From an uncultured bacterium (GTDB taxonomy: Bacteria > Planctomycetota > UBA8108 > UBA1146), in NCBI GenBank assembly GCA_938075155.1, contig CALJGL010000023.1, forward strand, positions 42,987-106,986: DNA of 64,000 nt. The letters are read 5' to 3'. Under the pieces are notes generated by a model. The model was not told the DNA's origin and did no database searches. It saw only the letters and a program-made list of their open reading frames with translations. This document shows positions 29,105 through 59,735 of the stretch, piece by piece (the stretch's first letter is position 1; each line of letters begins with the position of its first letter). The translations under genes and the position numbers were made by a program.

Positions 29105-31558
29105 TTGGTTTTGATCCAGAAATATTACTCTTCAAACTCATATTTGAAGTCCCTACTCATTTTAGGAATCTGCGTAGTTTCCCTCAGCTCTCCATTCGTC
29201 GGAGGACACGAGGAAGATCTGAAAGCACGAAACGTACTTCCTCCTTACAACGGGTCTGGATACAGAAGAGATGCTGGAGGGGTTCAACCCTTTGGTCCCG
29301 TCGGGGGAACTTCCAATGGAGTGGAATTACTCTCTTGGGTCACCCTCCCGGAGATGCAGGCGGGAATTTCCAATGGAAACGATTGCTGGGGGCATACGTC
29401 CGCTTCTGGACGCGAATATGCCCTGATGGCGCATTCTTCGGGGACCACTGTGATTGAGGTCACCAATCCCGGGAACGCTGTGGTGATCGATACCGTCGCT
29501 GGCCCTACAAGTCTGTGGCGCGACGTGAAAAGTTTCTCCACATTCGCTTATTCAGTGAGTGAAGGGGGTTCAGGGATCCAAGTGATCGACCTGACCGATA
29601 TTGATAATGGAGTCGTCTCTCTTGCTGGAACGATCAATGACGTGGGTTCAGCAGCGACTCACAATGTCGCTATCGATGAAGAGAGTGGATTTCTCTACCG
29701 CTGTGGTGGCGGTGGAAACGGCCTCAGGATTTATAGTCTCGCAGACCCCGGGAATCCAGTTTTCGTGGGAAGTTGGGGCGAGAGGTATGTGCATGATGTT
29801 CAAGTGAAAAGAATCTTGAATACGACCACGCAGATAGAGCGAGAGATCGCATTTGCTTGTTCCGGCAACAATCCTGCCGTTCTTGATATTGTAGATGTGA
29901 CCGACAAGGCGAATCCTATCGTGCTTTCCTCGACGCCATATGGAGGATCTCAGTATTCTCATCAAGGCTGGGTGTCAGAAGATAATAAGTTTTTCTACCT
30001 TGGGGATGAACTCGATGAAAATGGTTCTCAGGGGACGAAGACATACGTTTTTGATGTCAGGGTGTTGGGGTCTCCAAGCTTGGTGACGGAATACATCAGT
30101 GACAATCCATCCATAAATCACAATATGTACACTCTTGGAAATCGAATCTTCCAAGCGAACTACAGGAGTGGATTAAGAATTCTAGACGATACGAATCCAC
30201 TCAATATCACCGAGGTCGGATTCTTTGATACTGTCCCCGAGGATGACAACGCAGACTTCAGTGGCCTTTGGAGTTGTTATCCCTACTTTCCGAGTGGCAT
30301 TGTTATCGGGAGTGATATGCAAAAAGGCCTGTATGTATGGAGCATTCAGCCGGTTCCATTTGTCTTCGGATATCCTGCAGGAATTCCTGATTTGGTGAAT
30401 CCCGCTGGAGATACCCTCATCGTTGAGATCAATGCACAGACAGGGTTTTCAGTCGATAGTTCGACTCCCAGTCTCTGGGTCGATAATGGTGCAGGTTTCG
30501 TTTCCTCTAGCATGGTAGAGATCTCACCTGGAATCTTTGAAGGAAATTTCCCGCCTTCGACGTGTGGCTCGGAAATTCGTTGGTATGTATCTGCGGCTGC
30601 TTTGACGGGCGAAATTCAGTTTGATCCGCCGTCCTCTCCAGCAGGCTTCTTTGCAGCGACTTCCGGATCGGGATTGAATACTCTCATCAGTGAAGACATG
30701 GAAATCGATAACGGCTGGCAAGTGGGGCTTCCCTCGGATGATGCGACGACAGGGATCTGGACCCTTGGAGACCCTAACGGTACCGTCGCACAACCCGAGG
30801 ACGATAACTCTCAGGTGGGCAGTTTCTGTTGGTTTACCGGACAGGCTGCAGCGGGTTCAGGGGCCGGAACAAACGATATCGACGGAGGAACGACGACTCT
30901 TACTTCTCCGGTCTTCGATCTCTCTACGGCTACTGATCCTCAAATCTCTTACTTCCTTTGGTATTCCAACACTTCAGGAGCAAGTCCTTCAGCAGATGTT
31001 TTCCGTACGGAGATCAGTTCGGATGGGGGCGCAACATGGGCTCTTCTTGAAGAAGTTGGGCCTTCTGGACCGAATACAGCCGGAGGCTGGATACAGCGGC
31101 AGTTTAATCTCTCCGCATTTATTACGCTGACAAGTTCTGTCCAAGTTCGATTCATCGCTTCTGATCTGGGCTCACCTTCTGTGGTGGAAGCTGCGATCGA
31201 CGATCTCGTGATTTCTGACCTAGATTGTAATGATTGCAATGGTAACGGAGTGAATGACGCTACAGACATCGCCGCTGGGACGAGTGCAGACTCTAATGGA
31301 GATGGCATTCCCGATGAGTGTCAATGCACCCCCTTTATTCGTGGTGAATTGAATGATGATGGAGAAGTAGATATCTCGGATGCCATTCAGATATTGTTAC
31401 AACTCTTTAGCGGATCGCCTTCTCCCCAACCGGTGGAGAGAGCGGACGTGAACAGCTCTGGCAGCGTTGACATCGCAGACGCCGTTTACCTTGTGCAGTA
31501 TTTATTCCAAGGAGGAACGCCTCCCGGTTTCCCATTCCCAGTTGCGGACTGTAACTGA
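29105..31558 (+). CDS. Secreted LVIVD-repeat beta-propeller protein with a C-terminal dockerin-like module
   Basis: Signal peptide. LVIVD-like repeats (IQVIDLTD, GLRIYSLADPGNP, VLDIVDVTD). C-terminus GELNDDGEVDISDAIQILLQLF...ADVNSSGSVDIADAVYLVQYLFQGGTPPGFPFPVADCN. Confidence 0.75.
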   Translation: MVLIQKYYSSNSYLKSLLILGICVVSLSSPFVGGHEEDLKARNVLPPYNGSGYRRDAGGVQPFGPVGGTSNGVELLSWVTLPEMQAGISNGNDCWGHTSASGREYALMAHSSGTTVIEVTNPGNAVVIDTVAGPTSLWRDVKSFSTFAYSVSEGGSGIQVIDLTDIDNGVVSLAGTINDVGSAATHNVAIDEESGFLYRCGGGGNGLRIYSLADPGNPVFVGSWGERYVHDVQVKRILNTTTQIEREIAFACSGNNPAVLDIVDVTDKANPIVLSSTPYGGSQYSHQGWVSEDNKFFYLGDELDENGSQGTKTYVFDVRVLGSPSLVTEYISDNPSINHNMYTLGNRIFQANYRSGLRILDDTNPLNITEVGFFDTVPEDDNADFSGLWSCYPYFPSGIVIGSDMQKGLYVWSIQPVPFVFGYPAGIPDLVNPAGDTLIVEINAQTGFSVDSSTPSLWVDNGAGFVSSSMVEISPGIFEGNFPPSTCGSEIRWYVSAAALTGEIQFDPPSSPAGFFAATSGSGLNTLISEDMEIDNGWQVGLPSDDATTGIWTLGDPNGTVAQPEDDNSQVGSFCWFTGQAAAGSGAGTNDIDGGTTTLTSPVFDLSTATDPQISYFLWYSNTSGASPSADVFRTEISSDGGATWALLEEVGPSGPNTAGGWIQRQFNLSAFITLTSSVQVRFIASDLGSPSVVEAAIDDLVISDLDCNDCNGNGVNDATDIAAGTSADSNGDGIPDECQCTPFIRGELNDDGEVDISDAIQILLQLFSGSPSPQPVERADVNSSGSVDIADAVYLVQYLFQGGTPPGFPFPVADCN

Positions 31559-31623
31559 GGAGGATGAAATTGTTTGACGTGACTGTTTGAGCAATCATCT
31601 CATACAGTTCCGTTAAATAGTTT

Positions 31624-31684
31624 GGCAGTGGGGGCCGGCAGTGGGGTCGGCGCGTAATCTGGCGCGTAATCTGGCGAGTGATCT
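31624..31684. repeat. Short tandem repeats in a convergent intergenic region
   Basis: ggcagtgggg appears twice. ggcgcgtaatct appears twice, followed by ggcgagtgatct. Confidence 0.6.
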
Positions 31685-31749
31685 CCGTTGATACTCTCAG
31701 ATTCTATTGCAAGGGTCTCTTCTCTTACCGAACCCCGCCTTTGTTCTCT

Positions 31750-34059
31750 TTATTCGATGCGCAGGTCATCTATTCCTAATCGGATATCAAAGGGAGCGGT
31801 TCCGTCGGTCGTAAATACCCAATCGAGCATTCCTAGCGAGTTGAAGTTCAAGTTGGGATTGACGTTGAGGAAGTCTTCTAAAGGTATCGTCACGTCCAGA
31901 AACCGTTGATATTTCAGTGGCACAACTGGGCTCACTGAAATGGACTGTGGATGGTTTCCATTTTCAGGAAGATAGTTCATCAGGTTCAGAGTAGCTGTCT
32001 GAGCTGAAGAATCTCTGAGAGAGAGAGTTGCCGTAAAGTGCCACCCAATATTGTCGAGCCCCCCATGAACGTCATGATTCTTGATCCTGAACTTAAGGTT
32101 CTTCTGCGAACCCAATGACATGGGAGCGAAGATGAAGCCTAGGGGCATATTGATGCTCGAGTCTCCTTGAGGAGGCAGGATACAAATCAGGTTCGTGATC
32201 TCAGGGATAGGTTGAGGCAATGGGAAAGGCCAGTCGTAACAGGGTCCGGAATCGAAGAGAATCATATTCGTATGAGATATTTCGAACCCTTGCGAGTTGA
32301 TGGGGAACTGATCGAAGTTGTCGATTTCAAACACTCCCGAGAGGTTCCTTTTTGTTGCAACACTTTCGTATTGTGAACGTTGAGATTCTGTTCCGTAGAG
32401 CAAGCCTTCCATGCTGATGTCATCGAATGCGTACCTATTGAGGAAGGCCAGCATCCATTTACGGGTCAGATCGTGCTGAAGGCTGCGGGAAATGTATGGG
32501 CAAGAGTCTACGGCGGGTGATTGCGGAATCCACGTACATGTGCCGCACCCCAGACTTGAAGAATTGCTGCTATAGCCATGACAACCGCCGTAAATACAGA
32601 CTGCGGTGGTGGCTCCTACCATTCTCTCCAGAAGCCTCTCGGCATATGGGTAGATGACATCGGTGTCTTGTTCTGCTGTGATACTCAAAATTGGAACATC
32701 CGGAAGGGTTTGCCAACGAGTCGTATTTCCTATCCAAGAATCCTGTTTTGCATCTGTGGGTTGAAGAAGGATTAATCCTGGTGTGTTCGGTTCCAATTCA
32801 GCAGCGGTGACAGCGGCTGATGCACCACGGCTATGGCCGCCATAGAAAACCCTGTGCACATCGATAAGGTCAAAGAGGGGTGAAGTTGAATCTTGTGACA
32901 TCGCTTCAACGACTTCACGCGTTTTGAGGAGAACTCCTGCAGCGGCATCGTGTCCTCCCCAGCAGTACCAATCGGTGTAGACTTCGAAGGAAAAAGTGTT
33001 CCCTACGGAAACACAGATGACCCCATGCGTGGCCAGAAAGCCCAATAGACTGTCGTAATCGTCCCAATTGAACCCTGTTCCGTGGTGGAAGATAAGAATG
33101 GGAGCAGGGCCACTCAATCCTTCAGGAATGAGAATTCGAAGAGGCTTTAGGTCTGTGATTTGTGAGCTAAGTGGGGGTGAAGCGTTACAGCCCCAAAGTG
33201 GGTAGGGAGGGGGCCAGGGTAAATGATGAGTGAACTCAAAAAAGGTCTCGAGGACAGAGACAGAGTGCGGACCGGGTATGTTGAGATTGGGTGCTGGTTG
33301 TATTTGAGATTCTGAATCTTCAAAGGCAGCCAGTCTGCATTTGTAGAACACCAATTCAGCATTCGGAGCTTTAGCAAAAAGATTAAACTCGTGTATTCCA
33401 GGGGGGATATTTGTCGCGGAAAGAGTGCCCCAGCGAGTATCAAGACTCAGGTCACCCGGCAAATTGTCGCCGGGAACAATTCCGTACCCTGAATAAGTCA
33501 CAGATTCTGATATCACTCCGGTGCTATTTCCTGTCTCCCAACGAATCTCTGGATGACGAAACTGGGGTAACTGATCCAAATAGGGGAGGGATTCCCTGAA
33601 TGTGGAAAGGGTGAGTTGTCGGGTTTCTGTCACCTCTCCGAGGGAGCAAGGAGGTTCCATGCAGGTCAGCACTGTGGGGTTTAAATCGAAGTCGCAGTTG
33701 GGAAAAGGTGCTGGTAAAGCATTAGGAGAGCCAGTGAACACAAACCCGAGAAGGGTGATGACGTCATCTAATTGAAGAGAGCCATCGATATTAATATCGG
33801 CCGAGGCTTCGCAGGGGAGTCCTGTCCCTGAGCCAAAAATTTCTTCAAGCAAGAGAACGGGATCACTCAGGTCAATAAATTGGTCGCCATTGATATCACC
33901 CCGCAGGAATCCTTGAATGGGAGCCATTTGAGCTACACAGGTGGGAGACTCGGCTATCCATGCGCCGAGCAGAATGGTTACTAACCAGAAAATACGAATC
34001 CATGTGCCCATTGGGAGTCTCGCGCCTTTCCGTTTAGAGCGAACTTTAATGTCCATCAT
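31750..34059 (-). CDS. Secreted alpha/beta-hydrolase (GHSRG serine-hydrolase motif) with an N-terminal dockerin-like module
   Basis: Signal peptide. Residues about 40-130: RGDINGDQFIDLSDPVLLLEEIF...ADINIDGSLQLDDVITLLGFVFTGSPNALPAPFPNC. GxSxG-type motif GGHSRGASAAVTAAE. Confidence 0.7.
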   Translation of the reverse strand: MMDIKVRSKRKGARLPMGTWIRIFWLVTILLGAWIAESPTCVAQMAPIQGFLRGDINGDQFIDLSDPVLLLEEIFGSGTGLPCEASADINIDGSLQLDDVITLLGFVFTGSPNALPAPFPNCDFDLNPTVLTCMEPPCSLGEVTETRQLTLSTFRESLPYLDQLPQFRHPEIRWETGNSTGVISESVTYSGYGIVPGDNLPGDLSLDTRWGTLSATNIPPGIHEFNLFAKAPNAELVFYKCRLAAFEDSESQIQPAPNLNIPGPHSVSVLETFFEFTHHLPWPPPYPLWGCNASPPLSSQITDLKPLRILIPEGLSGPAPILIFHHGTGFNWDDYDSLLGFLATHGVICVSVGNTFSFEVYTDWYCWGGHDAAAGVLLKTREVVEAMSQDSTSPLFDLIDVHRVFYGGHSRGASAAVTAAELEPNTPGLILLQPTDAKQDSWIGNTTRWQTLPDVPILSITAEQDTDVIYPYAERLLERMVGATTAVCIYGGCHGYSSNSSSLGCGTCTWIPQSPAVDSCPYISRSLQHDLTRKWMLAFLNRYAFDDISMEGLLYGTESQRSQYESVATKRNLSGVFEIDNFDQFPINSQGFEISHTNMILFDSGPCYDWPFPLPQPIPEITNLICILPPQGDSSINMPLGFIFAPMSLGSQKNLKFRIKNHDVHGGLDNIGWHFTATLSLRDSSAQTATLNLMNYLPENGNHPQSISVSPVVPLKYQRFLDVTIPLEDFLNVNPNLNFNSLGMLDWVFTTDGTAPFDIRLGIDDLRIE

Positions 34060-34508
34060 ACCCCAATTTCTTCAATTCAACTTCAGTATTCAAATGCGGT
34101 AATATTTCAATGATCCATGCATTTGAATGTTTAACAATTGGGACTGGTTTATCCGTATAGGTGCCCGGAAATGCCTTCCTAGTGGCATTGGCCGCTTTTT
34201 TGTATGCCCGGAATATGCTTGAGTTGTCTTAATGTATTGTTAATATTGCGTTATTAGTCATTCGGTTTGTAGGGATATTGTAAGCCTGCATGTTAGTCGA
34301 TTGGGTGGCTGAAACGCATTGGCACAACGACGATAGCGGAGTTTCTACGACTCTGATTCGTCCTAAATTCCCCAACTTCGTTTGGGGAGAAATGGCTTCA
34401 GCGAGCCATCTGGGAGGAGACGAAATGTCAGATCTTCACATGAAGTCTGTACACACTGTTTCTAAGAGATTCGAATCCAAAGAATCTTGGCAGGGCAGTG
34501 ACGTCAAA

Positions 34509-37500
34509 ATGGTATTGCTCACATTATTCACGGTCTTTGTAATGGGCTACTGTAGCCCGGCGCTTGAGGCTCAATCAGATCCTGTCCCGCCGGCAGCTCC
34601 AACAAACCTCGAATGCATCGTTGAAGTGGCGCATTTGGAACTTTCTTGGACGAATACGGGCGAATACGATCAGATTCTGATTCGTCGTAACGGAGTCCTC
34701 CTAGAGTATCTCAATGGTTCTTCCACGAGTTACCTCGATATGGACGTCCCTGCCAATTTCCACCTTTATTCCGTTCATGGAATGACGACGGGTGCAAATG
34801 GTCAGGCTGAGGGTGTGGGAGCAGAGTGTTCTGTCTTCCTTATTCCGCCTCCCATCGAGCCAGGATTAGAAGTTCCTGCAGCGCTGAATTTCTTGCCCAT
34901 TCCCCTGCCCGACAATCTCTTCGACTTTATTGCTGATCCTGATATGGCGATTGCTTTGGGTAAGGCATTCTTCTGGGATATGCAGGCAGGATCTGATGAT
35001 CAAATCGCTTGTGCGACATGCCATTATCACGCCGGAGCTGACAACCGTAGAACTCATCAGTTGTACAACGGTCACAATGAAATTTTTGACCTGACTGTTG
35101 CAAACGAACGTCTTACTGCAACTGATTTCCCGCTCCATAAGCTGGCAAACCCGAATGATAATACGTCTGCTGTATTACAGAGTGTCGATGACACCATAGG
35201 GTCTTCAGGAATCTTGCATTCAAATTTCCTCTCTCTTACAGAGGACGCCAATGGAGTTGTTGGTGAAGAAATCGTCAGTATTGAAAATGCAGATAGCATC
35301 AAGGTCAATTCAGACGGTACGCAGGTACAAATGCGTAATGTCACAGACAGGAACGCTCCCTCTGTGATCAACTCCATCTACTTCCTTGAGACCTTCTGGG
35401 ATGGAAGAGCGTCTTTCTGGTTCAACGGAAGAGACAACTGGGGTCCGAGAAACCCCGATGCCTTTGTCTACAAGGTTCAGCCAGGTGGAACAGTGACTCA
35501 GGAAAAAATTCTGCTCGATAAAGCCTCATTGGCTTCTCAGGCTGCTGGTCCGATTCTGAGTGGCAACGAAATGTCTGCCCATGGACGAGACCTTCTTAAG
35601 GTTGGCAAAAAGTTGCTGAGCAGAGAGCCTTTGGCGACTCAAACAGTACACCCTAATGATAGTGTTCTCGGAGGAATGAGTGACGCTACAGACGGAAAAG
35701 GACTCGGTGAGACGACCTATCAGGAATTGATTCAATCTGCTTTTGTGACATCCTGGTGGGCGAGTGATCAGCTCTTCGGACCTGATCTTCAGCCTCTTAC
35801 AGATGTCGATGGAAACCTTCTCACTGGTGTTCCCAATGGCGTTGATCAGTTTTCAATGATGGAAGTCAACTTCTCCCTCTTCTGGGGATTGTCCATCATG
35901 ATGTATGAGTCCACCCTAGTTTCGGAAGACTCTCCTTACGACCGTTGGTGGAGAGCTACGAGAAATCCCGCGGATCCAAATGGCGACATTAATGCTCTCA
36001 GTTCTTTGGAGCATGAGGGAATGTCTGTCCTCGCCGGTTCAACCTGCATGTTCTGTCATACGACCTCTCTTTGGTCCAGTGCTGGAACCAGCAAGATTTT
36101 AACCGTACTCGAGCCAGAGGCTTCAGAGATCGAAGCTCTATTAGAGCGCATGCCGATGAGGGATATGCAACTTTCGGTCTATGATGGCGGATTCTACAAC
36201 CTTGGAGTGACTCCAACAGTTGAAGATATTGGTCGTGGTGGTATTGATCCATTCGGGCATAGTTTCTCGATTGTGAGAACGTTCCAAGAGAAAGCAAATA
36301 TTCCCAACTTGGATGATGACGGAGACGGCATTCCAAACGGAGCTGACCCCGATTTCATTGCTCATGATTTTCAGCCGTTTGCTGATCATGTTCTAGTTGT
36401 CACTCCTCCTCCTGCTCCTTGGGAAGATACGAACATGGATGGCATGTTCAAGACTCCCTCATTGCGAAACGTTGAGTTGACGGGACCATACTTCCACAAC
36501 GGAGGTGCTGGAACCCTTGAGCAAGTGGTGAACTTCTATGCACGCGGAGGAAACTTCGTTGACACAAACCTCGATACATTAGCTCCTGAAATGATCCCGC
36601 AGCCATTCCTCTCTATTAATGAGCAGAGGAAGTTGGCCATGGTGGCATTCATGGAATCACTGACAGATGACAGGGTTCGTTGGGAAAAAGCTCCTTTCGA
36701 TCACCCTGAAATCAGAGTTCCAGAAGGCGCGCTCGCGAGTGATCTCAATGGAGATGTGATCGCCGGCACGAATACCGTGGCTATCGATCGATTCAAGACA
36801 GTTCCTGCAGTAGGTGCTGAAGGTCGAAGTGTAGAGACTGATTCTGCCGGTCGTCCTCTTGATCCTCTGGTGAAGTTTCTTCAGCCAAGGACTGTCAAGG
36901 ATCTCTCATGCGTTCAGACTGGAGAATCGGTAACGATGTCTTGGCTTCCGCAGGAGTTCCCCAACGACGCTTCAACAAGTTTTAAGATTCTAAGAAACAA
37001 TCAAGTCGTTGCAGTTCTGCCCGAAACGGCAGCAAGCTTCACTGACGATTCGATTCCTCCGGGTGAGCATCAGTACACCGTTCGAGGTGAAGACGCCCAT
37101 GAAGGTTTCAATGCACATTGCACGGTCCTGGTGAACCCACCAGCACCTGTTGATCTGTCCTCGAATGTGAACGTGAATCAGGTGAGTTTGCAGTGGACAA
37201 ACCCCTGGCCTTACCACTCCATCGATATTTTCCGCGATGGCGTAAAAGTGGGTGATCAGTTAGCCGGTACTACTGAGATCTTTGTTGATGGCGGCGTGCC
37301 TGCTGGTCATCACTCCTACGAAGTTGTCGGAAGAATTCTGTCGATCGTTTCGGGTAATCTCATCTTCAGTGAACCTGCAATCGTTGGAGCCGACCGTCAT
37401 CCTCTCGCTGCACAAATCTTGGGCTGTACTTCAGTCGCAATGGGACAGAATGAGGTGACTTGGGGTAATACGGAGCCCTATGACTCACTGCGTTTGCTTC

Positions 37501-39176: not shown

Positions 39177-39465
39177 ATAGAAAACGAGACGTATCTTGCC
39201 GCGGCGACTCGTCGCCGTGGCAAGAAAAAGTCATAATAGTACGAAGTGTCATGAGTTAACTATGCGGTTAATAGGGTATCGTCTGGTAAGTCTTGAAAAA
39301 CAGGCCCCGAAGGTACTTGAATCTGTGCATTCGAGGAATAACATAAGGATCGCAAGTAATGTTGGCGAGAACGCCATCTGTGCGCTAAAGCCTTTATTGG
39401 CGTTAGTATGCGGCCTTATTTAATAGGAATAATAGGCGGGGTTCCCTGTCTCTAGGTGGTGTGTA

Positions 39466-47900: not shown

Positions 47901-47947
47901 AATGAGCCTGCCACCCTTCATCGGTTGGCAGGCTCATTTGTTTCTCT
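47901..47947 (+). terminator. Rho-independent terminator after the DUF1573 gene
   Basis: 13-bp perfect stem aatgagcctgcca / tggcaggctcatt followed by a T-rich tail. Confidence 0.7.
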
Positions 47948-50190: not shown

Positions 50191-50769
50191 CTAGGCGCGA
50201 AGTTCGCTTCCAGCTAGGCGCACTACTCGACGAGCGAGTTCTTCCGGGTCAAAAGGTTTGGCGAGAATGTCGTCGGCACCCAAGAGGCGGGCTCTGTCCA
50301 ACTCGGCTTGCTCCATGGCACTGATCACCAAAATCTTGGTCTTGCTCAGTTCTGGGGCGAGTCTGACATATTCAATGACGTCGAATCCACCTAGACCAGG
50401 AACTCGAAGATCGAGTGTCATCACGCATGGGAGGTGCTCTCTCAAGAGTGATCCCGCAGTGAAGCCATCCTGAGCCATGAATACATCAAAGTTATGTTTT
50501 CTCAGGGTGATTTCGATGGCTTTGGAGACGGTGGGTTCTTTCTCGACGACGAGTACTCGACGCGCGAGGTGCAGGAAATCTCTCGGAATGGGAATGTTGT
50601 TTTCCCTTAGAAACGAGATGAAGTTGCTGATTTCGACGCGGTTATCTCCACGACCGGGCAGCTGATATGCACGTAGCTGACCACGCTGAATCCAGCGAAT
50701 AACTGTACGAAAGTTTACGCCGCAATAACTGGCGATTTCTCCCGTAGTAAGGGTTCTCTTATCGTTCAT
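50191..50769 (-). CDS. Response regulator with reversed architecture: N-terminal MerR/excisionase-type HTH and C-terminal receiver domain. The ORF track extends to 50814; the start at 50769 has a GAGGAG SD 7 nt upstream.
   Basis: HTH in LTTGEIASYCGVNFRTVIRWIQRGQLRAYQLPGRGDNRV. Receiver-like C-terminal half (VLVVEKEPT..., VMTLDLRVPGLGGFDVIEYV, KILVISAMEQ, DDILAKPFDPEEL) with a conserved Asp in TLDLRVPG and K in AKPF. Confidence 0.7.
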   Translation of the reverse strand: MNDKRTLTTGEIASYCGVNFRTVIRWIQRGQLRAYQLPGRGDNRVEISNFISFLRENNIPIPRDFLHLARRVLVVEKEPTVSKAIEITLRKHNFDVFMAQDGFTAGSLLREHLPCVMTLDLRVPGLGGFDVIEYVRLAPELSKTKILVISAMEQAELDRARLLGADDILAKPFDPEELARRVVRLAGSELRA

Positions 50770-51026
50770 CCCACACTCCTCGCACATTACTCTACCTCGG
50801 TTAACAAATTTCAACTCGCAATGAAATTTGTAGTGAAGTCGGAAATCCCAATTGTCGTAACTGATTGATTGGGTGCAGGTTCCGGCTTCTCTTGTAAATC
50901 AACTATACACATATTGTATGTTTGTTAGTCATTTTGTCAATAGTTAGGAATGTCTATATCCGGTCCTGCAGTCCCGATTGGCCAAAAAATACCGGAGTGA
51001 ACTCAAGTTCTTTATGTGTGTCTTAA

Positions 51027-53195
51027 TCAAGGACAGTTTTGTCCTGTTTGGCAGGGAAGGAAATCTTGTGTCGGCGTATCAATTCCACAAGTCGCTCCCG
51101 GTGCTGCCGGTGCTAAGCCACCTGAATAAAGAAAGAGAAGCATGAATACAGGGTCACTGATGTCGATGTTTCCATCATCGTTCGTATCCACAGCATCTAA
51201 ACAGGTGTGATTTACAGATTGGAACAGGATGGAAAGCTGAGAGGAGACATCCGCTAGGTTTCTAATCCCGTCCAAATTGACATCTCCACGAATAAACAGT
51301 GGGCCTGGACTCGGACAAAAGATCTGACAGCTGACGGGCAGAAGAAGAGCTCCACAGGTACTGACGGGTGTCAATATCGCTGTCGTATTCAATCCTAGAG
51401 GCGCAGGGAGTGTGACCGAGGTTACATTTCCCGGGAGGGTCAGTGAGGTCGCACCCAGTTGAAGATTAATAGAACTGTAACTGGATTCATTCACCCATGT
51501 CAGATCAGCGATACAGGTTGCTGTATCGAGATTGCAGATCAAATTGGAGATAGGGATCTGTGGAATCAGAGGAGGAACATTTATCTCACAACAACTTGCG
51601 CCTGTTGCGGGGGTGAACCCTCCCAGACTCGGTTCGACACAGTATGTCATCATTCCTGATAAACCTGGATCGTGGACGAGTGAAGTTTCGGTTCCTAATA
51701 CCGTCGTGATTGGCAATAATTGGGAGGGATCAGGTCCACCTGAAATGAGGAAAAAGTCTGCGGGGCCAGCGGACTCCCAATTCAGAGTGACTTCTTGCGA
51801 GCAAGGGTTGGGAATGCTGCATGAGAAATCGAGAAGAGGGAGAGGTCTTTGATCGTAGAAGATCGCTCCTAGGTCAGGAGCTGTGTTGTCGGGGTCTAAT
51901 CCGTACAGAGGGTCACCTGCGTCGATGGCGGGAGAATTGGGATCTAGTGAGAAATCTTCAATGAGTGGGTTCGTAAATACGGGGTCGAAGAGGAACACTG
52001 TTGATCCGGGATACCCCGAGGAAATGACGCTGTAGTCGACCTGCGCCAATGTTGGAATATCGATCTCCAAAGTAACTGGATTCCATAATAGGCAGTGATT
52101 CACAAGCAAGGTCGATAAAGCTCCTCCTGAATTTGTTGGAGGATAGAACACTCCTCCTGAACTTCCTCCTGAACTTCCTCCAGAGGTGTTTCCAGTGATG
52201 GTTGACCTGTGTATTTCAACTTCGGTCAGGTTGATCGTGGAAGCGATCGCACCACCATTGGTATTCGCGGTATTCGAAGCGATGATACTGGAGTTGATGC
52301 TGAGGGTTCCGCCGTCGAGTCCAATTCCTCCACCGCGGCTACTGAAGTTTCCTATGATAGATGAGGAATCGATCGTCGTCGTACTTTGATAAAGGGTGAT
52401 TGCTCCACCCAAAAGTGAAGCTTGATTATTACTCAGCTGAAGATTCGACATTGTGATGGCGGAGATTCTCGAATAGATTCCTCCTCCAATAATGGCGGAG
52501 TTATTCTGAAAGCTACATGTGTTGATGCTGACTTGAGAGCACAGATTGAGAGTGATTCCTCCTCCGGCTGTCAGTGAAGAGTTATTACTGAAGCTACAGT
52601 TCTGAAGATTGATGACTCCACAGTTGGACAGGTAGATTCCTGCGCCCTCCAATGCGTTATTGCCTGAGATCGACACATCGGAAAGATCGAGTGAAAGCGT
52701 TTCTTCTGCATAGAGCCCAGATCCGAATTCAGCAGAATTCCCACTGAGGACACAGTTTTTGATGGTGGGGGAGGCGATAAATATTCGAATCCCGCCCCCT
52801 CGTCGGTAAGTTCCAGAAGAATCGGTAATAGGCCTTCCCGTTCCTCCTGTGATTGTGAATCCGTCTAGTATGGCGAGTTCGGTTTCTCCACCGGAGAAGG
52901 TGACAGTGGCTCCTTCATCAGGGCCCAGAGTGAGCAGTGATCCATCGATCGTCGTTTGGTCTGATCCTGCTGTGGAAAGGATGGAGATGTCTTTTCCTAT
53001 GTATGAGAGGTTTTCTTGGTAGGTGCCAGGTGAGACTAAGATCTGGTCGCCCGAATAAGCAGCGAAGATCGCTTGCTGAATGGTGGGGTACTCCGAGGGG
53101 ACCAAGAGGTCGATCGCTTCTGCCTGTGTTACTGAAAAGCATAAGAAGAGAATCGATAGCATCGATTTCAGCGGTTTCAGGAGATTCAATGTCAT
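51027..53195 (-). CDS. Secreted right-handed parallel beta-helix (pectate-lyase-fold) protein with a C-terminal dockerin-like module
   Basis: Signal peptide MTLNLLKPLKSMLSILFLCFSVTQAEA. Numerous beta-helix rung repeats (NNSAIIGGGIY, GNFSSRGGGIGL, NTANTNGGAIA). C-terminus RGDVNLDGIRNLADVSSQLSILF...DTNDDGNIDISDPVFMLLFLYSGGLAPAAPGATCGIDTPTQDFLPC...C. Confidence 0.75.
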   Translation of the reverse strand: MTLNLLKPLKSMLSILFLCFSVTQAEAIDLLVPSEYPTIQQAIFAAYSGDQILVSPGTYQENLSYIGKDISILSTAGSDQTTIDGSLLTLGPDEGATVTFSGGETELAILDGFTITGGTGRPITDSSGTYRRGGGIRIFIASPTIKNCVLSGNSAEFGSGLYAEETLSLDLSDVSISGNNALEGAGIYLSNCGVINLQNCSFSNNSSLTAGGGITLNLCSQVSINTCSFQNNSAIIGGGIYSRISAITMSNLQLSNNQASLLGGAITLYQSTTTIDSSSIIGNFSSRGGGIGLDGGTLSINSSIIASNTANTNGGAIASTINLTEVEIHRSTITGNTSGGSSGGSSGGVFYPPTNSGGALSTLLVNHCLLWNPVTLEIDIPTLAQVDYSVISSGYPGSTVFLFDPVFTNPLIEDFSLDPNSPAIDAGDPLYGLDPDNTAPDLGAIFYDQRPLPLLDFSCSIPNPCSQEVTLNWESAGPADFFLISGGPDPSQLLPITTVLGTETSLVHDPGLSGMMTYCVEPSLGGFTPATGASCCEINVPPLIPQIPISNLICNLDTATCIADLTWVNESSYSSINLQLGATSLTLPGNVTSVTLPAPLGLNTTAILTPVSTCGALLLPVSCQIFCPSPGPLFIRGDVNLDGIRNLADVSSQLSILFQSVNHTCLDAVDTNDDGNIDISDPVFMLLFLYSGGLAPAAPGATCGIDTPTQDFLPCQTGQNCP

Positions 53196-53595: not shown

Positions 53596-55029
53596 ATGCT
53601 GAACCAAAGCCGAATCTTCTCCAAGTTCTGTTTACTCGTCTGCGTTGTGGGCCTCCTCGGAGGTTGCTTCGGACGCAGTTCAAAGATCCAGGCACCTGCT
53701 CCCTTCAGTTACCCCCAGCAAGATTGGGTTTTGACGGTCGGTGATCCGATAGAGATCCCTGCACCCGAGATTTTCGGTCCCGTCCCTCTAGGGTGGGCAG
53801 TGTCACCGCAGTTACCAGCAGGTCTTTCATTCAATGAAGACAATGGTTCGATCTCCGGAATTCCTCAGGAGCCGTGCCCTCGGAACTTCTTTACGGTGAC
53901 GGCTTCGAACTTTGGTGGACAAACGAGCTATGGCATCTCCATCAGAGTATTACCAGAGGCTCCCTGTGATCTTGCATACCCCGTCACAGAGGTGACAGGC
54001 GTTCTTGCGTTTGCAGAGTTTCCGACTCTCGTCCCCTCCCTCGGTTGTGGAGGTTCGAACGATTACAGTATTGATCCCGCATTGCCTGAGGGTCTTTTGC
54101 TCGACATGTACACAGGAATCATCAGTGGAACTCCATTGATCAGTCATGGTCCACAAGAACATCAGATCACTGCGAGTAACGAAAGTGGCTCTGCAGTAAC
54201 GAGTTTGTTGATCGAGATCTTGCCTGCAGGCCCATGCGGACTCGTCTATGAAGAATCCGACAAAGTTGTTGCTCCAAATGCTGATATGGATCCGATTCTT
54301 CCGACCGTAGGTTGTGGAGAAGCTGAGATTTGGGAGATTAACCCTTCCTTGCCAGCTGGAGTAAACCTTGATCCCGCGACCGGAGTGATCAATGGTAATC
54401 CTTCAGTCGAGACCAATAGAATCGTCTACACGATTACCGCTTCAAATGAACATGGATCTGACAGTACTGAAGTAGCTTTACGTATCTCTCCAGTGTTCAT
54501 CTTTGAAATCGATCAACTGAGTGGATCCTTCAATCCTGAAACAGGTGAAGGTGGAGCTCAGGCCAGAATCATTTTGACTGAGGGAGAAGATAACGAGACT
54601 TTCCCAACGCAGATTCAACTGCTGTCTCTGGCATTGGCGCACGATCCCGAAAGTTTGGACGTCACTTCAATCGAACCCGGAGAAGACCTTGCAGGGTTGA
54701 ACGGTGGAGAGGGCCCCGACTTCTTTACGCCGTTCGAAACGTCGACAGGATTTACCCTTGGAATCGTGTTTTCCTTTAGTCCTGATTTCCCTGGAATCAG
54801 CGCAGAAACTCCGACCGAGATCGCTGTTGTTAACTACGTGACCGTTCCTGAAAACACCTCTGGAGATGCGGATTCAATCCTATCCAGTTTGGCGTGGGGA
54901 AATCCCGTAGCAGGTCAACCTGGTGTTCCCTATGTCGAGAACACCGTCGTATTAGATGGTGTGACCGGGATTCTACCTGTGACCATTGATAACAATGTTG
55001 AACTGGTTGCGGAAACTTCTGGCGAGTGA
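53596..55029 (+). CDS. Lipoprotein with about four He_PIG (putative Ig) repeats and a C-terminal cohesin-like domain (candidate scaffoldin). The ORF track begins at 53392; Met 53596 has a GGAGGA SD and gives lipobox LLGGC.
   Basis: Signal and lipobox MLNQSRIFSKFCLLVCVVGLLGGCFG. Repeats with PCDLAYP...LGCGG...IDPALPEGLLLD..TGIISGTP. C-terminal about 175 aa with ...LNGGEGPDFFTPFETSTGFTLGIVFSF..., shared with the next two genes. Confidence 0.7.
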   Translation: MLNQSRIFSKFCLLVCVVGLLGGCFGRSSKIQAPAPFSYPQQDWVLTVGDPIEIPAPEIFGPVPLGWAVSPQLPAGLSFNEDNGSISGIPQEPCPRNFFTVTASNFGGQTSYGISIRVLPEAPCDLAYPVTEVTGVLAFAEFPTLVPSLGCGGSNDYSIDPALPEGLLLDMYTGIISGTPLISHGPQEHQITASNESGSAVTSLLIEILPAGPCGLVYEESDKVVAPNADMDPILPTVGCGEAEIWEINPSLPAGVNLDPATGVINGNPSVETNRIVYTITASNEHGSDSTEVALRISPVFIFEIDQLSGSFNPETGEGGAQARIILTEGEDNETFPTQIQLLSLALAHDPESLDVTSIEPGEDLAGLNGGEGPDFFTPFETSTGFTLGIVFSFSPDFPGISAETPTEIAVVNYVTVPENTSGDADSILSSLAWGNPVAGQPGVPYVENTVVLDGVTGILPVTIDNNVELVAETSGE

Positions 55030-55086: not shown

Positions 55087-58083
55087 ATGATCAGGTTCAT
55101 CCCCCTTATCCTGATGTTACTACTACTAGTTGTCCCCGGCTGTGGGGGCGGTACCGGTGGACCTCAATTGGAAGTTATTCCACCCCAAACAGTGGAATAC
55201 TTCGGATTGGGCCCGTTTCTTCTCGGCAAAGAAATTGTTGCAGTCGAACCCTTCATTTCGGGGGGGCAGCCTGACAACTGGACAGTCTCTCCAGAATTTC
55301 CTGCAGGGGTCTTGCTGAATCCCGAAACAGGTGTGATATCAGGAGTTCCCGAAGAGGTTCACTCTCCCACTCCGCATACCATCATGGCTCAAAACTCTAG
55401 CGGTCATTTTGTAATTACAGTAATGATCAGTGTTCTACCCACGACTCCCTGTGGATTAAGTTATGAAACAGAATCTATTCAGGTCATTCTTGGTGAACCT
55501 GTCGGCCCATTTGTTCCTTTGTACGGGTGTGGGCCTGTTCAGCTCTGGACCATTATTCCGCAACTGCCAGAAGGGTTATTGTTTGACTCTTCAACGGGCA
55601 ACATCAGTGGTGTAGCGCAAGTGACCCAGCCTCTGACTGAATATCTGGTGAGTGGTTTTAATCAATTTGGCTCCGCCAGCACGATATTGGCGCTTGAGGT
55701 CATTGGCCCTCCACCCTGTCAACTGACATACGAAGTAGAGACTGTTTCGCTCTCTCAAGGACAAACCTTGGAACCACTGCTTCCAGCTGTCGGTTGTGGA
55801 GATGTGATACTGTTTTCCATCGATCCCGCTTTGCCGGTGGGTTTGAGTCTTAATGTTTCAAATGGGATTCTCTCCGGAGAAGCAGGGGGAGTTCACCCAC
55901 TCACTCAGCATGAAATAATGGCGAGCAATCCTGCAGGATTCACAAGCTTCACCATTTCTATTGAGGTCTTGGTCGAGCCTCCATGCAATCTCCAGTATCC
56001 CGAGTCTGAGATGACTTTGACCGTTGGAAATATTTTGGCCGACGGATTCTTGCCGACATCTGAGTGTGGACCAATTAGTCAATATTCGGTAGATCCAGCG
56101 TTGCCAGAAGGCCTTCTCTTGAACCCGGAGACGGGCGAATTATCAGGAACTGTCCTGGAGGAACAATCAGAGACTGATCATGTAATTCGAGCGTCTAACT
56201 TAACTGGTTTCACGGAGTTCCTTCTCGGTTTGGAAGTTCATCCAGAACCTCCATGCGATTACGAATATTCGGTGAATACATTGGATCTGGAAGTGGGTAC
56301 GCCTCTTCAGGTGCTTGCTCCGCAAATCTCTTGTGGACTGCCGACGATATTTGAGTCGTTTCCTGTCCTGCCTGCTGGAATCCAATTGGATTCACAATCT
56401 GGCGAGATTTCAGGACAACCGTTGGAGACATTGAGCGGAATGGTTTTCACCTTTATCGCTTCAAACATTTCGGGTGTTTCGACGACAACGCTTGAGATCC
56501 AAGTATTGCCAGAGCCACCCTGTGATTTTCAATACCCCAGTGACCAGATTCAGTTAACAGTCGGTCATTCCTTATCACCGCTCGTACCCTCTACAGATTG
56601 TGGATCACCGACGAGCTACACTGCTCTTCCTCCACTTCCCTCGGGGATCATTCTTGAGGTCACGACAGGAATCATTTCAGGGATTCCCCAATTCGTAGGG
56701 GGACCCACAAGTCATGTCATCCTTGCCGGAAATGTATCTGGAGATGTGAGTTTTCCAATAGAAATTGAAGTGATCGAGGAAGCTCCTTGTGACCTTACAT
56801 ACCCAGTATTGAATCTAACCTTGGAAACTGGGCAAGAAGTTGGACCTCTGAATCCTTTAGTCGGTTGCGGAGTTCCGACAGAGTGGGTTGTTTCTCCCTC
56901 TTTACCCTCCGGATTGTCTTTGGACCAAATGACAGGGACTCTTTCTGGAACTGTACAGGAGACGCAAGTCACATCTTCTTACCAGATAGAGGCTTCGAAT
57001 GGTGCGGGTTCAACGTATTTCACACTTGAGATTGAAATCCATCACCCTGCACCATGTGGGCTGACCTATTCTTCCTCACTGATTGAACTTTTTTCGGGTG
57101 AAGATTTAGCACCCATGATCCCAAATGTGGGTTGTGGACCCGTAGAAGAATACAGGATTGATCCGCAGTTGCCTGAGGGATTAACTCTCGATCCTATGTT
57201 AGGAATTCTGCAGGGGACTGCTCAAGGAGAAAGTCCTATTATCGAGTACGTGATTTCTGCTTTGAATCCGACGGGTGCTTCTGATTTTCCAGTACTGATA
57301 TCCATCTTTGGAGCAGCACCCTGTGATCTTCAGTACCCTGAAACAGTTATTGCTGCACCAGTGGGCACTCTTATTGAGCCACAGGTTCCAGTTGTTGACT
57401 GTGGAGTTGTTTCTACTTGGAGTATTGAGCCTCCTTTGCCAGGTGGAATGGAATTCGATACGACTTCTGGAGTGATCAGTGGAGAAGTACTTTCTGAAAT
57501 AGAATCCCATCACACCGTGACTGCTTCCAATGGATTTGGAGATGTTCAATTCGAGCTGACCCTTGTTTTTCGATTGATATATGAATACAGAGGATCAGAA
57601 CTCGTCGTGCCATATTCCATTGCAGACGGTGTGGGTAGCGGGTCCTTCACGTTGACAGCCCAAGAGAGTGAATTGAATCCGGGCTATCCTACTTCTCTCT
57701 CAGGGATTTCAATGGCGATTCAGTACAACTCAAATCTTCTTCAATTTGTGGATGCCGTTCAGACTCCAGAAACTGCTGCGCTAAACGGGGGCGAGGGACC
57801 TGATTTTTGGGCGATAAACCCCATCGACGGGGGTGTCCTCATAGGCATGCTTGTTTCGTTTAGTTTTGTTGATTCCCTTATACTTACTGATGAAACCCCG
57901 ATTGTGAATCTGAGCTTGCAGACACAGCCAGAGGCTTTCATTGGGGATAGCGTTGGAGTCGCGGGTCAACTTATATGGGGGAATCCCACCACTATTCCTC
58001 TCGACAATCTGATTGTCATCGACGGGGCTAATAGTTCGATCCCGGTGATGGAATCCGTCCCCTTCTTGATCCAACCTCAATAA
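55087..58083 (+). CDS. Large lipoprotein with about nine tandem He_PIG repeats of ~95 aa and a C-terminal cohesin-like domain (candidate scaffoldin)
   Basis: Signal peptide MIRFIPLILMLLLLVVPGCGG. Nine modules of consensus PPC.L.Y......L..G.....P...CG........DP.LP.GL.L....G.ISG......... C-terminal 170 aa (57571-58080) contains LNGGEGPDFWAINPIDGGVLIGMLVSF. Confidence 0.75.
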   Translation: MIRFIPLILMLLLLVVPGCGGGTGGPQLEVIPPQTVEYFGLGPFLLGKEIVAVEPFISGGQPDNWTVSPEFPAGVLLNPETGVISGVPEEVHSPTPHTIMAQNSSGHFVITVMISVLPTTPCGLSYETESIQVILGEPVGPFVPLYGCGPVQLWTIIPQLPEGLLFDSSTGNISGVAQVTQPLTEYLVSGFNQFGSASTILALEVIGPPPCQLTYEVETVSLSQGQTLEPLLPAVGCGDVILFSIDPALPVGLSLNVSNGILSGEAGGVHPLTQHEIMASNPAGFTSFTISIEVLVEPPCNLQYPESEMTLTVGNILADGFLPTSECGPISQYSVDPALPEGLLLNPETGELSGTVLEEQSETDHVIRASNLTGFTEFLLGLEVHPEPPCDYEYSVNTLDLEVGTPLQVLAPQISCGLPTIFESFPVLPAGIQLDSQSGEISGQPLETLSGMVFTFIASNISGVSTTTLEIQVLPEPPCDFQYPSDQIQLTVGHSLSPLVPSTDCGSPTSYTALPPLPSGIILEVTTGIISGIPQFVGGPTSHVILAGNVSGDVSFPIEIEVIEEAPCDLTYPVLNLTLETGQEVGPLNPLVGCGVPTEWVVSPSLPSGLSLDQMTGTLSGTVQETQVTSSYQIEASNGAGSTYFTLEIEIHHPAPCGLTYSSSLIELFSGEDLAPMIPNVGCGPVEEYRIDPQLPEGLTLDPMLGILQGTAQGESPIIEYVISALNPTGASDFPVLISIFGAAPCDLQYPETVIAAPVGTLIEPQVPVVDCGVVSTWSIEPPLPGGMEFDTTSGVISGEVLSEIESHHTVTASNGFGDVQFELTLVFRLIYEYRGSELVVPYSIADGVGSGSFTLTAQESELNPGYPTSLSGISMAIQYNSNLLQFVDAVQTPETAALNGGEGPDFWAINPIDGGVLIGMLVSFSFVDSLILTDETPIVNLSLQTQPEAFIGDSVGVAGQLIWGNPTTIPLDNLIVIDGANSSIPVMESVPFLIQPQ

Positions 58084-58355
58084 GTAAGAGGTCTTAGGAT
58101 TTCGGCATTTAAATCACAAATGTCAGGAAATAGATAAGATATCTTCCCCTCGAAATGTTAAAATATTGAGTCATACCTTTATGAAGGTGTAATGTTATTA
58201 GTATTCGTGAATCCTTTTGTCGCTATGTATTACAAGAGGACTGTTATTTATTGAAGTCGTTTCACCTTGGGCGATGACCTGTGCTATGAAATTTAATATG
58301 AGTCTATTTCAGACAACTGAATAGCCTGATCTATTTATTCATAAGATTAAAAAGG

Positions 58356-59735
58356 ATGTTTTTCATGATCCATGTGCAATCAAAAATATTGACTCTGGTT
58401 CTACTGACCACTTTTTGTTGCTCTGACCTGAGTTTTTCACAGGTACATACCCTTACTGCCGGAACCGGATCTGTTCTTCCTGGGGGCACGGTTAATATTC
58501 CCGTATTGTTATCCAACGACGAAGGCGCTCGTGGATACAGCATGGGAGTTTCTCATTCAGGAACAGACCTGACCTTGACCGCAATGTCTCCAGGACAGGA
58601 AGCAGCGGATGCGAATGCAGGCACCGGCCCAGATTTTGAATTCATTGATCTAAGTCCTACGGGTGGATCCGGAGGAACCTACGGTTGTATTTTGAGTACT
58701 GGAGCGCCTCTTGACGAGATCGCAGTGGGGACCAATAACGAGATTGTGTTATTGAGCTACAGTTGCTCTGGGGCCGCAGCGCCTGGAAGTATTACATCAT
58801 TCAATTTCTCAGATACTCTGGGAACTCCCAACGTTCAGACTGTCATTAGTGTTGTCGCAGGTGGTACCTCTATCAGTCGTATTCCGACGAAGGTAGGGGG
58901 ATCTGTATCTGTTGATACCCCTCCCGTCACCGGATTGAGCTGTTTACTCAGTGACCCTTGTCTCTGTGACTTCAGTCTTTCCTGGTCGAATGCTATGACC
59001 TACGACAGTATCGAGATTACGAATGGTTCTGGAGCTGTGATTCAGACCCTTGCCGGTACAGCTACGACTGCTGTTGTCTCTATTAGTGGCACGACAACGG
59101 GTGGTCTCGCCTCTGATAACCTTTCTGTCAGAGGAATCTCCAACGCCGTGACGAGTGCAAATGCAACTTGTACTGCAACATGTCCTGTTGTGGATTTGCC
59201 CACTGCTCCAGCTGGAGTCTCCTGTTCTGTGAATCAGTCAAATGGTGAGACGACTGTTTCTTGGACCAACTCTTCTACTTACGCTGCGATAGAAGTCCGT
59301 TTGGATGGCGCATTGGTGGGAACGCTGGGGGGTGGTGCAACTTCGACCACTGTCACCATTGGTGGCCCCGGAAGTTACTCAGTTTCAGTGAGTGGTAGCA
59401 ATGTTTGCGGTGCTCTTTCCTCAGCAGGCTCTTGCACAGCTGTTCGCGATAACTTCTTTATTCGCAATGATATCAATCAGGACGGAACTCAGAATATTGC
59501 TGATCCGGTTCAGTTGCTTGATTTCCTCTTTGGTGGAGGAAGCGTGAGCTGCCTTGATTCTGCAGATGTGAATGATGACGGTACTAATAACATTGCCGAT
59601 GTTGTTTACAGTTTGAATGTGATCTTTGGAATCTCAGTAGGCGGAACTGTTCCGGTCGTTCCGGCACCAGCCTCCGCCTGTGGTGGAGATCCCACTGCGG
59701 ACGGTCTCGATTGCGCTTCCTTTAACGGTTGCTAA
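58356..59735 (+). CDS. Secreted protein with an N-terminal cohesin-like domain, Fn3-like modules and a C-terminal dockerin-like module (candidate adaptor)
   Basis: Signal peptide. N-terminal GGTVNIPVLLSNDEGARGYSMGVSHSGTDLTLTAM...GTGPDFEFIDLSP...ILST...KVGGSVSVD, compare C. thermocellum CipA cohesin GDTVNIPV...GIANCDFVYSYDPNVLEI...KSFDTAVY...IVFLF...FDGGVNV. C-terminus NDINQDGTQNIADPVQLLDFLFGGG...VNDDGTNNIADVVYSLNVIFG...CGGDPTADGLDC...C. Confidence 0.7.
   Translation: MFFMIHVQSKILTLVLLTTFCCSDLSFSQVHTLTAGTGSVLPGGTVNIPVLLSNDEGARGYSMGVSHSGTDLTLTAMSPGQEAADANAGTGPDFEFIDLSPTGGSGGTYGCILSTGAPLDEIAVGTNNEIVLLSYSCSGAAAPGSITSFNFSDTLGTPNVQTVISVVAGGTSISRIPTKVGGSVSVDTPPVTGLSCLLSDPCLCDFSLSWSNAMTYDSIEITNGSGAVIQTLAGTATTAVVSISGTTTGGLASDNLSVRGISNAVTSANATCTATCPVVDLPTAPAGVSCSVNQSNGETTVSWTNSSTYAAIEVRLDGALVGTLGGGATSTTVTIGGPGSYSVSVSGSNVCGALSSAGSCTAVRDNFFIRNDINQDGTQNIADPVQLLDFLFGGGSVSCLDSADVNDDGTNNIADVVYSLNVIFGISVGGTVPVVPAPASACGGDPTADGLDCASFNGC

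Follow-up and report, generated by a model that had tools for sequence, protein, structure and literature searches.

Docking of dockerin modules on cohesin modules is among the strongest protein-protein interactions and is widely used in synthetic biology; to our knowledge, its natural roles outside the Firmicutes are almost entirely untested. The subject of this report is a cluster of genes for large secreted proteins in the DNA of an uncultured marine planctomycete (assembly GCA_938075155.1, contig CALJGL010000023.1, positions 42,987 to 106,986). This whole stretch of 64,000 nt is called the window; coordinates refer to it, and genes are designated by their span or by its first position. Based on the analysis described below, it is probable that dockerin-bearing proteins encoded between 29.1 and 59.7 kb, which are not carbohydrate-active enzymes (CAZymes), dock in a Ca-dependent manner on the single cohesins of lipoproteins with He_PIG stalks, either directly or through proteins carrying both cohesin (Coh) and dockerin (Doc).

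The planctosome, a non-cellulolytic cohesin-dockerin system of Planctomycetes, has been known as an in silico proposal since 2019 (Andrei et al. 2019, ISME J, PMC6461901). In that model, which concerns the freshwater Nemodlikiaceae, the anchor is a 2,210-aa protein with a lamin-tail domain (LTD) and P-domains, the adaptor has the order Doc-HYR-Coh, and the cargo consists of M12B/M14 peptidases (PMC6461901). No experimental follow-up was found among the later citing literature searched. The locus in the window shares with the planctosome the Planctomycete host, the non-cellulolytic cargo, the division into anchor, two-module adaptor and dockerin cargo, and the presence of P-domains. It differs in that the anchors are He_PIG lipoproteins and the adaptors are Coh-FN3x2-Doc and FG-GAP-Coh-Doc proteins. 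The P-domains of the planctosome are in the anchor, whereas here the P-domain occurs only in a cargo protein, 11279. Pfam scans of the window found neither LTD, HYR and M12B/M14 peptidase domains nor the LTD/P-domain anchor and Doc-HYR-Coh architectures. An earlier sequence-only reading had held that the locus would be a distinct system; it is less so than supposed, since the concept had already been published (PMC6461901).

Four proteins of the window hold one cohesin each. The OlpA and OlpC proteins of Clostridium thermocellum, a Gram-positive host with SLH anchoring and CAZyme cargo, capture individual type I dockerin proteins through a single cohesin. As in the proposed anchors of the window, this cohesin is on a cell-attached protein, and the OlpA/OlpC cohesins (PDB 3ul4, 4dh2) are among the top structural matches to the cohesins studied here. 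Unlike OlpA/OlpC, the locus has a diderm host, an N-terminal lipid on a He_PIG stalk, no CAZyme cargo and a four-Cys tail on the dockerin. Pfam scans of the region's proteins gave no match to SLH or LPXTG, and the anchors carry lipoprotein signals instead. With one cohesin per anchor, the arrangement therefore looks like single-site display of the OlpA/OlpC kind and less like a multi-cohesin scaffoldin. The locus is not a cellulosome sensu stricto, having a single cohesin per protein, no CAZyme cargo and no SLH or sortase anchor, and the description "cellulosome-like multi-enzyme complex" given from the sequence alone is too strong.

The adaptor scaffoldins ScaB of Acetivibrio cellulolyticus and ScaC of Ruminococcus flavefaciens (PDB 3l8q, 5lxv) also combine cohesin(s) and dockerin in one protein that bridges anchor and cargo, and the ScaC cohesin is the best match to a window cohesin in both sequence and fold. 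In contrast to ScaB and ScaC, the window adaptors have one cohesin each (1-5 in their relatives), and identity to clostridial cohesins is 8-19%. Assembly outside cellulose degradation would be a feature shared with the Archaeoglobus fulgidus cohesin (2xdh) and the toxin-complex cohesins of Clostridium perfringens (2jh2, 2vo8, 2w1n), which are also among the structural matches; these pairs belong to other lineages and architectures, and none has lipoprotein stalks or a Cys-tailed dockerin. What is added here to the described systems is the lipoprotein/He_PIG anchor, the Cys-tailed dockerin, a cohesin subfamily largely missed by Pfam, and a large (Coh)n-Doc family.

Dockerin and cohesin modules of the locus

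A hidden Markov model (HMM) built from the dockerin module and run against a six-frame translation of the whole window identified exactly eight copies of ~95 aa, with full-sequence expectation values (E) of 2e-30 to 1e-38. The carriers are 29105, 31750, 34290, 41982, 48172, 51027 and 58356 together with an outlier, 11279, and all eight were linked by all-vs-all BLAST (E 1e-7 to 7e-24). The same seven modules and the same outlier (11279-13705) had been recognized before from the sequence, at a length of ~85 aa. Seven of the eight modules are C-terminal; that of 31750-34059 is N-terminal, directly after the signal peptide, and therefore fits a binding module and not a C-terminal sorting signal.

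Every module contains a pair of 22-residue segments at a distance of 32-33 residues. D, N or E occupies the Ca-coordinating positions 1, 3, 5, 9 and 12 throughout the 16 segments with two exceptions, both in second segments: position 5 is S in 29105, and position 9 is Q in 31750. The Pfam model Dockerin_1 (PF00404; threshold 22.9 bits) was passed by two modules, those of 29105 (30.3 bits) and 48172 (27.5 bits); 34290 (20.1 bits) and 11279 (21.6 bits) fell just under the threshold and the other modules were weak. A profile made from the eight modules returned solved dockerins first from the PDB (2y3n_B, E 2e-6; CelS, 1daq, E 9e-5; and many more), and a profile of the orthologues of 58356 also matched 1daq (E 1.8e-5), so that the dockerin similarity noticed earlier is borne out by profile searches. 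By the type I criteria of paired segments and profile similarity, the terminal modules are classed as true dockerins. The alignments to solved dockerins span only profile positions 10-64 of 96. The remainder, which has no counterpart in solved dockerins, comprises a cysteine of the linker between the repeats, a Pro-rich stretch and a tail of the form C-G-x-D-P-T...C...C. Four cysteines are thereby conserved; the module of 29105 is without most of this tail. A search for homologues with the dockerin profile returned short contig-end fragments only.

A domain of ~170 aa is shared by the products of three adjacent genes, 53596-55029, 55087-58083 and 58356-59735. The C-terminal domains of the first two, which are the He_PIG proteins, matched the cohesin family of 58356 in hhalign with a probability of 97.9% (E 6e-13), and they share the motif N-G-G-x-G-P-D-F. 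Pfam Cohesin (PF00963) matched none of the three window domains, even when E values up to 10 were admitted, a profile of the three sequences found no match in the PDB, and the isolated domain of 55087 returned one fragment when used as a homologue query. Because the Pfam model and the three-sequence profile matched nothing, orthologues were required to reach known cohesins. Seven of 27 orthologues of 58356 match Pfam Cohesin (best E 3e-6), and all 13 PDB matches of the 58356 domain-family profile are cohesins, the best being R. flavefaciens ScaC (5lxv_A, E 8e-6). In the window, Pfam alone recognizes two of the eight dockerins above its threshold and none of the cohesins.

An AlphaFold2 model of residues 27-195 of 58356 had a predicted local distance difference test (pLDDT) score of 93, and the best 50 Foldseek matches to it in the PDB were all cohesins (E 1e-9, template modelling score ~0.7). 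Two of the three proposed domains were modelled; both are predicted to form the nine-stranded beta-sandwich of the cohesin jelly-roll, as the sequence-only reading had expected, and every one of their top PDB matches is a cohesin. These structures are of cohesins that bind dockerins, and a clear gap separates them from other beta-sandwiches. By profile and predicted fold, the three domains proposed from the sequence alone are cohesins. A fourth, which had been missed, lies at residues ~405-555 of 48172-50127 and carries the motif GGLGPDFW; it was detected by the HMM in the six-frame search (E 1.1e-5) and by hhalign (probability 84%), and it recurs in orthologues with E down to 4e-9. Judged by sequence comparison, the four window domains are mutually homologous.

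Anchors, relatives and conservation

The two He_PIG proteins begin with lipoprotein signals, which were judged by inspection. The product of 53596-55029 begins with MLNQSRIFSKFCLLVCVVGLLGGC, its signal reading ...VVGLLGGC, and that of 55087-58083 begins with MIRFIPLILMLLLLVVPGC, its signal reading ...LLVVPGC. In all orthologues examined the lipobox Cys is retained (...GGC, ...SGC, ...AGC or ...TGC), and the terminal cohesin is conserved likewise. By the lipobox criterion both are classed as signal peptidase II lipoproteins, and their description from sequence alone as cohesin-bearing lipoproteins with He_PIG stalks also fits the orthologues. In the short anchor, He_PIG was matched with E 2.7e-25 in three stretches and the cohesin HMM with E 4e-43. 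Orthologues of the long anchor (in L004, at 3786-9740, and in L017, L018, L019, L021, L023 and L026) are ~1000, 1280, 1535-1565 or ~1990 aa long and keep the lipobox and the terminal cohesin; across relatives the stalk ranges from 3 to ~18 He_PIG repeats. A length that varies about two-fold while the cohesin is kept is what a spacer or stalk would be expected to show, and it suggests that the stalk length of the long anchor is under selection or free to vary.

An exhaustive search with the cohesin profile was made against 1.84 billion representative proteins (clusters at 50% identity) and gave 2,382 matches at E up to 1e-3, including 1,115 at E up to 1e-10. The same Cys-tailed dockerin is present in 144 of the best 149 of the 2,382 (97%) and is C-terminal in 141. 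One cohesin copy was found in 22 of these dockerin-bearing proteins, two copies in 87, three in 28, four in 6 and five in 1. Most of these (Coh)1-5-Doc relatives have 420-600 aa and no further domain, the commonest being the two-cohesin form of ~430 aa; relatives P0049-P0197 are small secreted proteins with the four-Cys dockerin tail. All organism-named members of the family come from metagenome-assembled genomes (MAGs) of Planctomycetota, and they are mostly annotated "hypothetical protein". Pfam Cohesin scored 44.4 bits for P0049 against a threshold of 24.1. Among 60 subfamily representatives, 13 (~22%) are recognized by Pfam Cohesin or Dockerin_1 at an E cut-off of 1e-3, which shows that Pfam-based surveys would undercount cohesins in Planctomycetota roughly four-fold.

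The closest genome to the window is the Black Sea MAG Planctomycetota BS30m-G49 (97% identity). All of the closest genomes are Planctomycetota MAGs, in agreement with the Planctomycete-like character read from the sequence. The Coh-FN3x2-Doc gene was found in 22 loci of GTDB species-representative genomes, some of which give two, nearly all of them Planctomycetota/Planctomycetia. When the fetched loci were searched with the dockerin and cohesin HMMs, a core block was recognized in ~20 of them, down to 44-57% identity, so that the synteny sought in related genomes extends over ~20 species-level marine Planctomycetota MAGs. The order of the block is FG-GAP-(Coh)-Doc, response regulator, beta-helix-Doc (minus strand), short He_PIG-Coh, long He_PIG-Coh and Coh-FN3x2-Doc. 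In relatives of 36-38% identity, the Coh-FN3-Doc gene has only housekeeping genes as neighbours. For the upstream part of the region (29105-48172), the only contigs recovered belong to the same species.

The near-obligate fusion and the conserved neighbourhood constitute strong indirect evidence, to which the phylum-wide (Coh)n-Doc family contributes most, for a functional partnership between the cohesin subfamily and the Cys-tailed dockerin subtype, which would presumably bind each other.

Proposed assembly and alternatives

In the proposed assembly all components would be exported through Sec signal peptides. The two lipoproteins would be lipid-anchored at the N-terminal Cys, and each would carry a single cohesin at the tip of its stalk, which is rich in disulfides, consists of 3 or 8 He_PIG repeats and differs in length between species. 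The ~95-aa dockerins, composed of two Ca-binding segments and a Pro-rich four-Cys tail, would bind the anchor cohesins in a Ca-dependent manner. The Coh-FN3x2-Doc and FG-GAP-Coh-Doc proteins would bind to an anchor while presenting another cohesin, acting as adaptors or chain extenders. Such an adaptor role had been suggested for 58356, which carries both modules; it fits the sequence, the architecture is kept in orthologues, and 48172 is a second protein of this type. The cargo would be adhesin-like or enzymatic and not cellulolytic, and the embedded response regulator plausibly controls expression. The analysis itself establishes the module identities, the folds, the lipoboxes, the synteny and the near-obligate fusion of the two modules; the binding of cohesin to dockerin, the choice of cohesin by each dockerin, the Ca dependence and the location at the cell surface as opposed to the periplasm are points that we infer.

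Several points weigh against cargo display of this kind. The four window cohesins are only 19-26% identical pairwise and the dockerin contact positions vary among the modules, and therefore some pairs may not bind. The model of the He_PIG-protein cohesin is of only moderate confidence and was made from a mixed alignment including the 58356 family, so that it is not independent. In addition, a chain that unites both modules might bind intramolecularly or homotypically instead of displaying cargo. One alternative is a self-assembling matrix, in which (Coh)n-Doc proteins polymerize head-to-tail or with branches into an extracellular lattice, fibre or sheath to which the lipoproteins attach, enzyme display being secondary or absent. 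Such a matrix would account for the preponderance of small (Coh)1-5-Doc proteins without other domains among the best 149 relatives, for the two window proteins that hold both modules, and for the solitary Coh-FN3-Doc orthologue among housekeeping genes at 36-38% identity. It is nevertheless unlikely, as six dockerin-only proteins of the window have catalytic or adhesin domains that fit cargo, and the anchors hold a cohesin and no dockerin. Docking might also take place inside the enlarged planctomycetal periplasm, with the lipoproteins in the cytoplasmic membrane or the inner leaflet of the outer membrane and the stalks positioning enzymes there. A review-type statement in PMC11840708, by which planctomycetes have an enlarged periplasm serving polymer uptake, is counted in favour of this arrangement. 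Only Sec and signal peptidase II signals were seen in the window, with no feature for outer-membrane translocation, and stalks of 3 to ~18 He_PIG repeats would suit the spanning of a wide compartment. Cadherin-like arrays, FG-GAP and choice-of-anchor B proteins are, on the other hand, typical of the cell surface, and a periplasmic location appears quite improbable.

A further explanation is that the modules are not partners at all, the dockerin being a Ca-binding stability or sorting tag and the cohesins generic beta-sandwich spacers or ligand binders that share a context of secretion or regulation. Orphan dockerins or cohesins are common outside clostridia (Peer et al. 2009, as cited in PMC6461901), which is counted for this explanation. 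The failure of Pfam to recognize the window cohesins points the same way, as does the placement of 29105 in a "choice-of-anchor" family, whose members typically have alternative sorting tags. It is weakened by the fusion of the subfamily with the dockerin in 144 of 149 proteins, by block synteny in ~20 species, by the one N-terminal dockerin, and by the closest structures, which are specifically dockerin-binding cohesins well separated from other beta-sandwiches; we judge it very improbable. A role of the dockerin as C-terminal sorting signal was rated unlikely in its own right, in view of the N-terminal module and the fusion statistics.

Anchored docking of non-CAZyme cargo, the favoured arrangement, may be part of something larger. 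It is possible, as a tentative proposal, that a phylum-wide and essentially unannotated system exists in Planctomycetota, in which small (Coh)1-5-Doc proteins with disulfide-locked dockerins, numbering in the hundreds to thousands, would form self-assembling branched scaffolds on lipoprotein stalks and organise adhesins and redox or hydrolytic enzymes at the envelope. Such a system would amount to a general planctosome architecture and would differ from cellulosomes in anchoring, cargo and dockerin structure. The locus represents a compact, conserved set of parts (four cohesins, eight dockerins and lipoprotein stalks) from abundant uncultured marine Planctomycetota, and it is tied to a large family (1,115 or more clusters at 50% identity) for which "hypothetical protein" is almost the sole annotation. 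Should binding be confirmed, the locus would provide the first concrete, testable interaction matrix for the planctosome idea of 2019, reveal how proteins are displayed on lipid-anchored stalks in a diderm bacterium, and supply a disulfide-tailed dockerin variant and new orthogonal cohesin-dockerin pairs for the toolbox.

Gene content, cargo and genomic setting

The region at 29.1-59.7 kb contains 12 open reading frames (ORFs), and 10 of the products (459-1628 aa) have an N-terminal signal peptide or lipobox, as had been claimed for large secreted proteins and lipoproteins in 10 of 12 genes. The features are listed in Table 1.

Table 1. Coordinates, strands and module composition of the genes of the locus and of the outlying dockerin gene
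Feature and proposed role	Position (nt)	Strand	Composition
Choice-of-anchor B (LVIVD-type) propeller, cargo	29105..31558	+	TIGR04312 318 bits; C-terminal dockerin nt 31310-31555
Alpha/beta hydrolase, cargo	31750..34059	-	Signal peptide; N-terminal dockerin nt 33640-33933; chlorophyllase-like domain
Giant protein, cargo	34290..39176	+	Di-haem CCP_MauG E 7e-18; rhamnogalacturonan I (RGI) lyase beta-sheet domain; FN3-like repeats; C-terminal dockerin nt 38886-39173 (HMM E 2e-36)
Secreted paralogue, no dockerin	39466..41949	+	Matches N-terminal domain of 41982, 45% identity over 564 aa
Cadherin-like protein, cargo	41982..46478	+	560-aa N-terminal domain; 8 cadherin-like/Big_9 repeats (E 5e-134); C-terminal dockerin nt 46188-46475 (HMM E 2e-37)
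Second bifunctional protein (Coh+Doc)	48172..50127	+	FG-GAP propeller (FG-GAP_3 E 5.5e-28); cohesin-like domain nt ~49384-49836; dockerin nt 49834-50124
Response regulator	50191..50814	-	N-terminal HTH_17 E 1.5e-6; C-terminal Response_reg E 5e-17
Beta-helix-Doc, cargo	51027..53195	-	Right-handed beta-helix; FN3-like repeats; C-terminal dockerin nt 51030-51320 (HMM E 7e-36)
Short anchor	53596..55029	+	Lipoprotein, lipobox LLGGC; 3 He_PIG repeats; C-terminal cohesin nt 54487-55026
Long anchor	55087..58083	+	Lipoprotein, lipobox VVPGC; 8 He_PIG repeats; C-terminal cohesin nt 57568-58080
Bifunctional protein (Coh+Doc)	58356..59735	+	Signal peptide; cohesin nt 58437-58940; two FN3/Ig-like repeats; Cys-tailed dockerin nt 59433-59732
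P-domain protein, outlying cargo	11279..13705	-	P_proprotein E 2.9e-14; C-terminal dockerin nt 11282-11569 (HMM E 2.6e-37)

The cargo assignments of the sequence-only reading (propellers, beta-helix, hydrolase, di-heme peroxidase, cadherin arrays and P-domain) all hold, that of the beta-helix being weak and that of the hydrolase sub-threshold. NosD-family and Chlam_PMP matches of 51027 were weak; PF13229 Beta_helix is on record for the orthologue in L004, and the position is syntenic. The hydrolase 31750 scored 24.9 bits for Chlorophyllase, under the Pfam threshold, and its dockerin was matched at residues 48-143 of the stop-to-stop frame (HMM E 4e-32). In the giant protein the signal peptide begins at residue ~74 and the counterpart on other contigs is called at 1583 aa; the true start of the gene is probably downstream of 34290. 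Pfam and NCBIfam scans found no glycoside hydrolase (GH), carbohydrate esterase (CE) or carbohydrate-binding module (CBM) family on any dockerin-bearing protein, which agrees with the non-cellulolytic cargo proposed before. The nearest CAZyme-related signals are the beta-helix, the RGI-lyase beta-sheet accessory domain and the sub-threshold chlorophyllase-like match.

Gene 39466-41949 gave no match to the dockerin HMM in the six-frame search, and its membership of the system is uncertain. Its product has acidic double-disulfide repeats (NF033662) and a Big_9 domain at the end. The ~560-aa N-terminal domain of the adjacent paralogues 39466 and 41982 had no Pfam or NCBIfam match.

The response regulator noted earlier within the region is the HTH_17 and receiver protein 50191-50814, and it occupies the same position in L001-L003 and L006. 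Its layout is inverted, with the HTH_17 domain (MerR/excisionase-type) N-terminal and the receiver C-terminal. No cognate histidine kinase was seen within the block.

An ORF of 365 codons, 46776-47872 (+), includes the gene called at 47081-47872 as its 3' part; it has a signal peptide at its start and an in-frame TGA at 47033-47035, the context being VNGT-U-GCT. When the TGA is read as Cys, the product matches DUF1573 end to end (2-98/98, E 4e-20), and the short ORF matches the second half of the NCBIfam OS_HP2 (seleno)protein. A candidate selenocysteine insertion sequence hairpin 10-30 nt 3' of the TGA folds no better than shuffled sequence (z = -0.63), and no tRNA-Sec is present in the window. 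On other contigs, gene callers split the counterpart of 46776-47872 into genes of 86 and 263 aa. The ORF is a probable candidate for a secreted DUF1573 selenoprotein.

The GC content of the 29.1-59.7 kb region is about the window average. Housekeeping genes flank the region on both sides, namely UvrD, RuvA and anthranilate synthase upstream and an HMG-CoA lyase/methylcrotonyl-CoA carboxylase operon downstream. Because of this composition, these flanks and the block synteny in ~20 species, the region is regarded as a conserved chromosomal block; the "30-kb island" of the earlier description stands as a gene cluster and was rejected as a mobile island. Dockerins are enriched in it, with seven in 30 kb against one in the remaining 34 kb of the window. 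At ~8.5 kb past the end of the region, outside the window, L001 carries a giant gene of ~1620 aa (18892-21371, -), whose product gave a partial match to the dockerin HMM (E 1e-10 to 1e-12) together with a faint GBD_T9SS_assoc signal, so that the set of dockerin-bearing proteins reaches past the window. Equivalent positions are occupied in L002-L005 and L010-L014.

Just upstream of the region, at 25083-28797 (+), an apparent operon encodes an NHL-repeat protein, a YtkA-like protein and a 395-aa di-haem CCP/MauG peroxidase; the second MauG-like di-haem domain is that of the dockerin-bearing 34290-39176. After the outlying dockerin gene 11279-13705 come a gene for tRNA-Thr (13975-14050, minus) and one for a XerC/D-type tyrosine recombinase (14181-15098).

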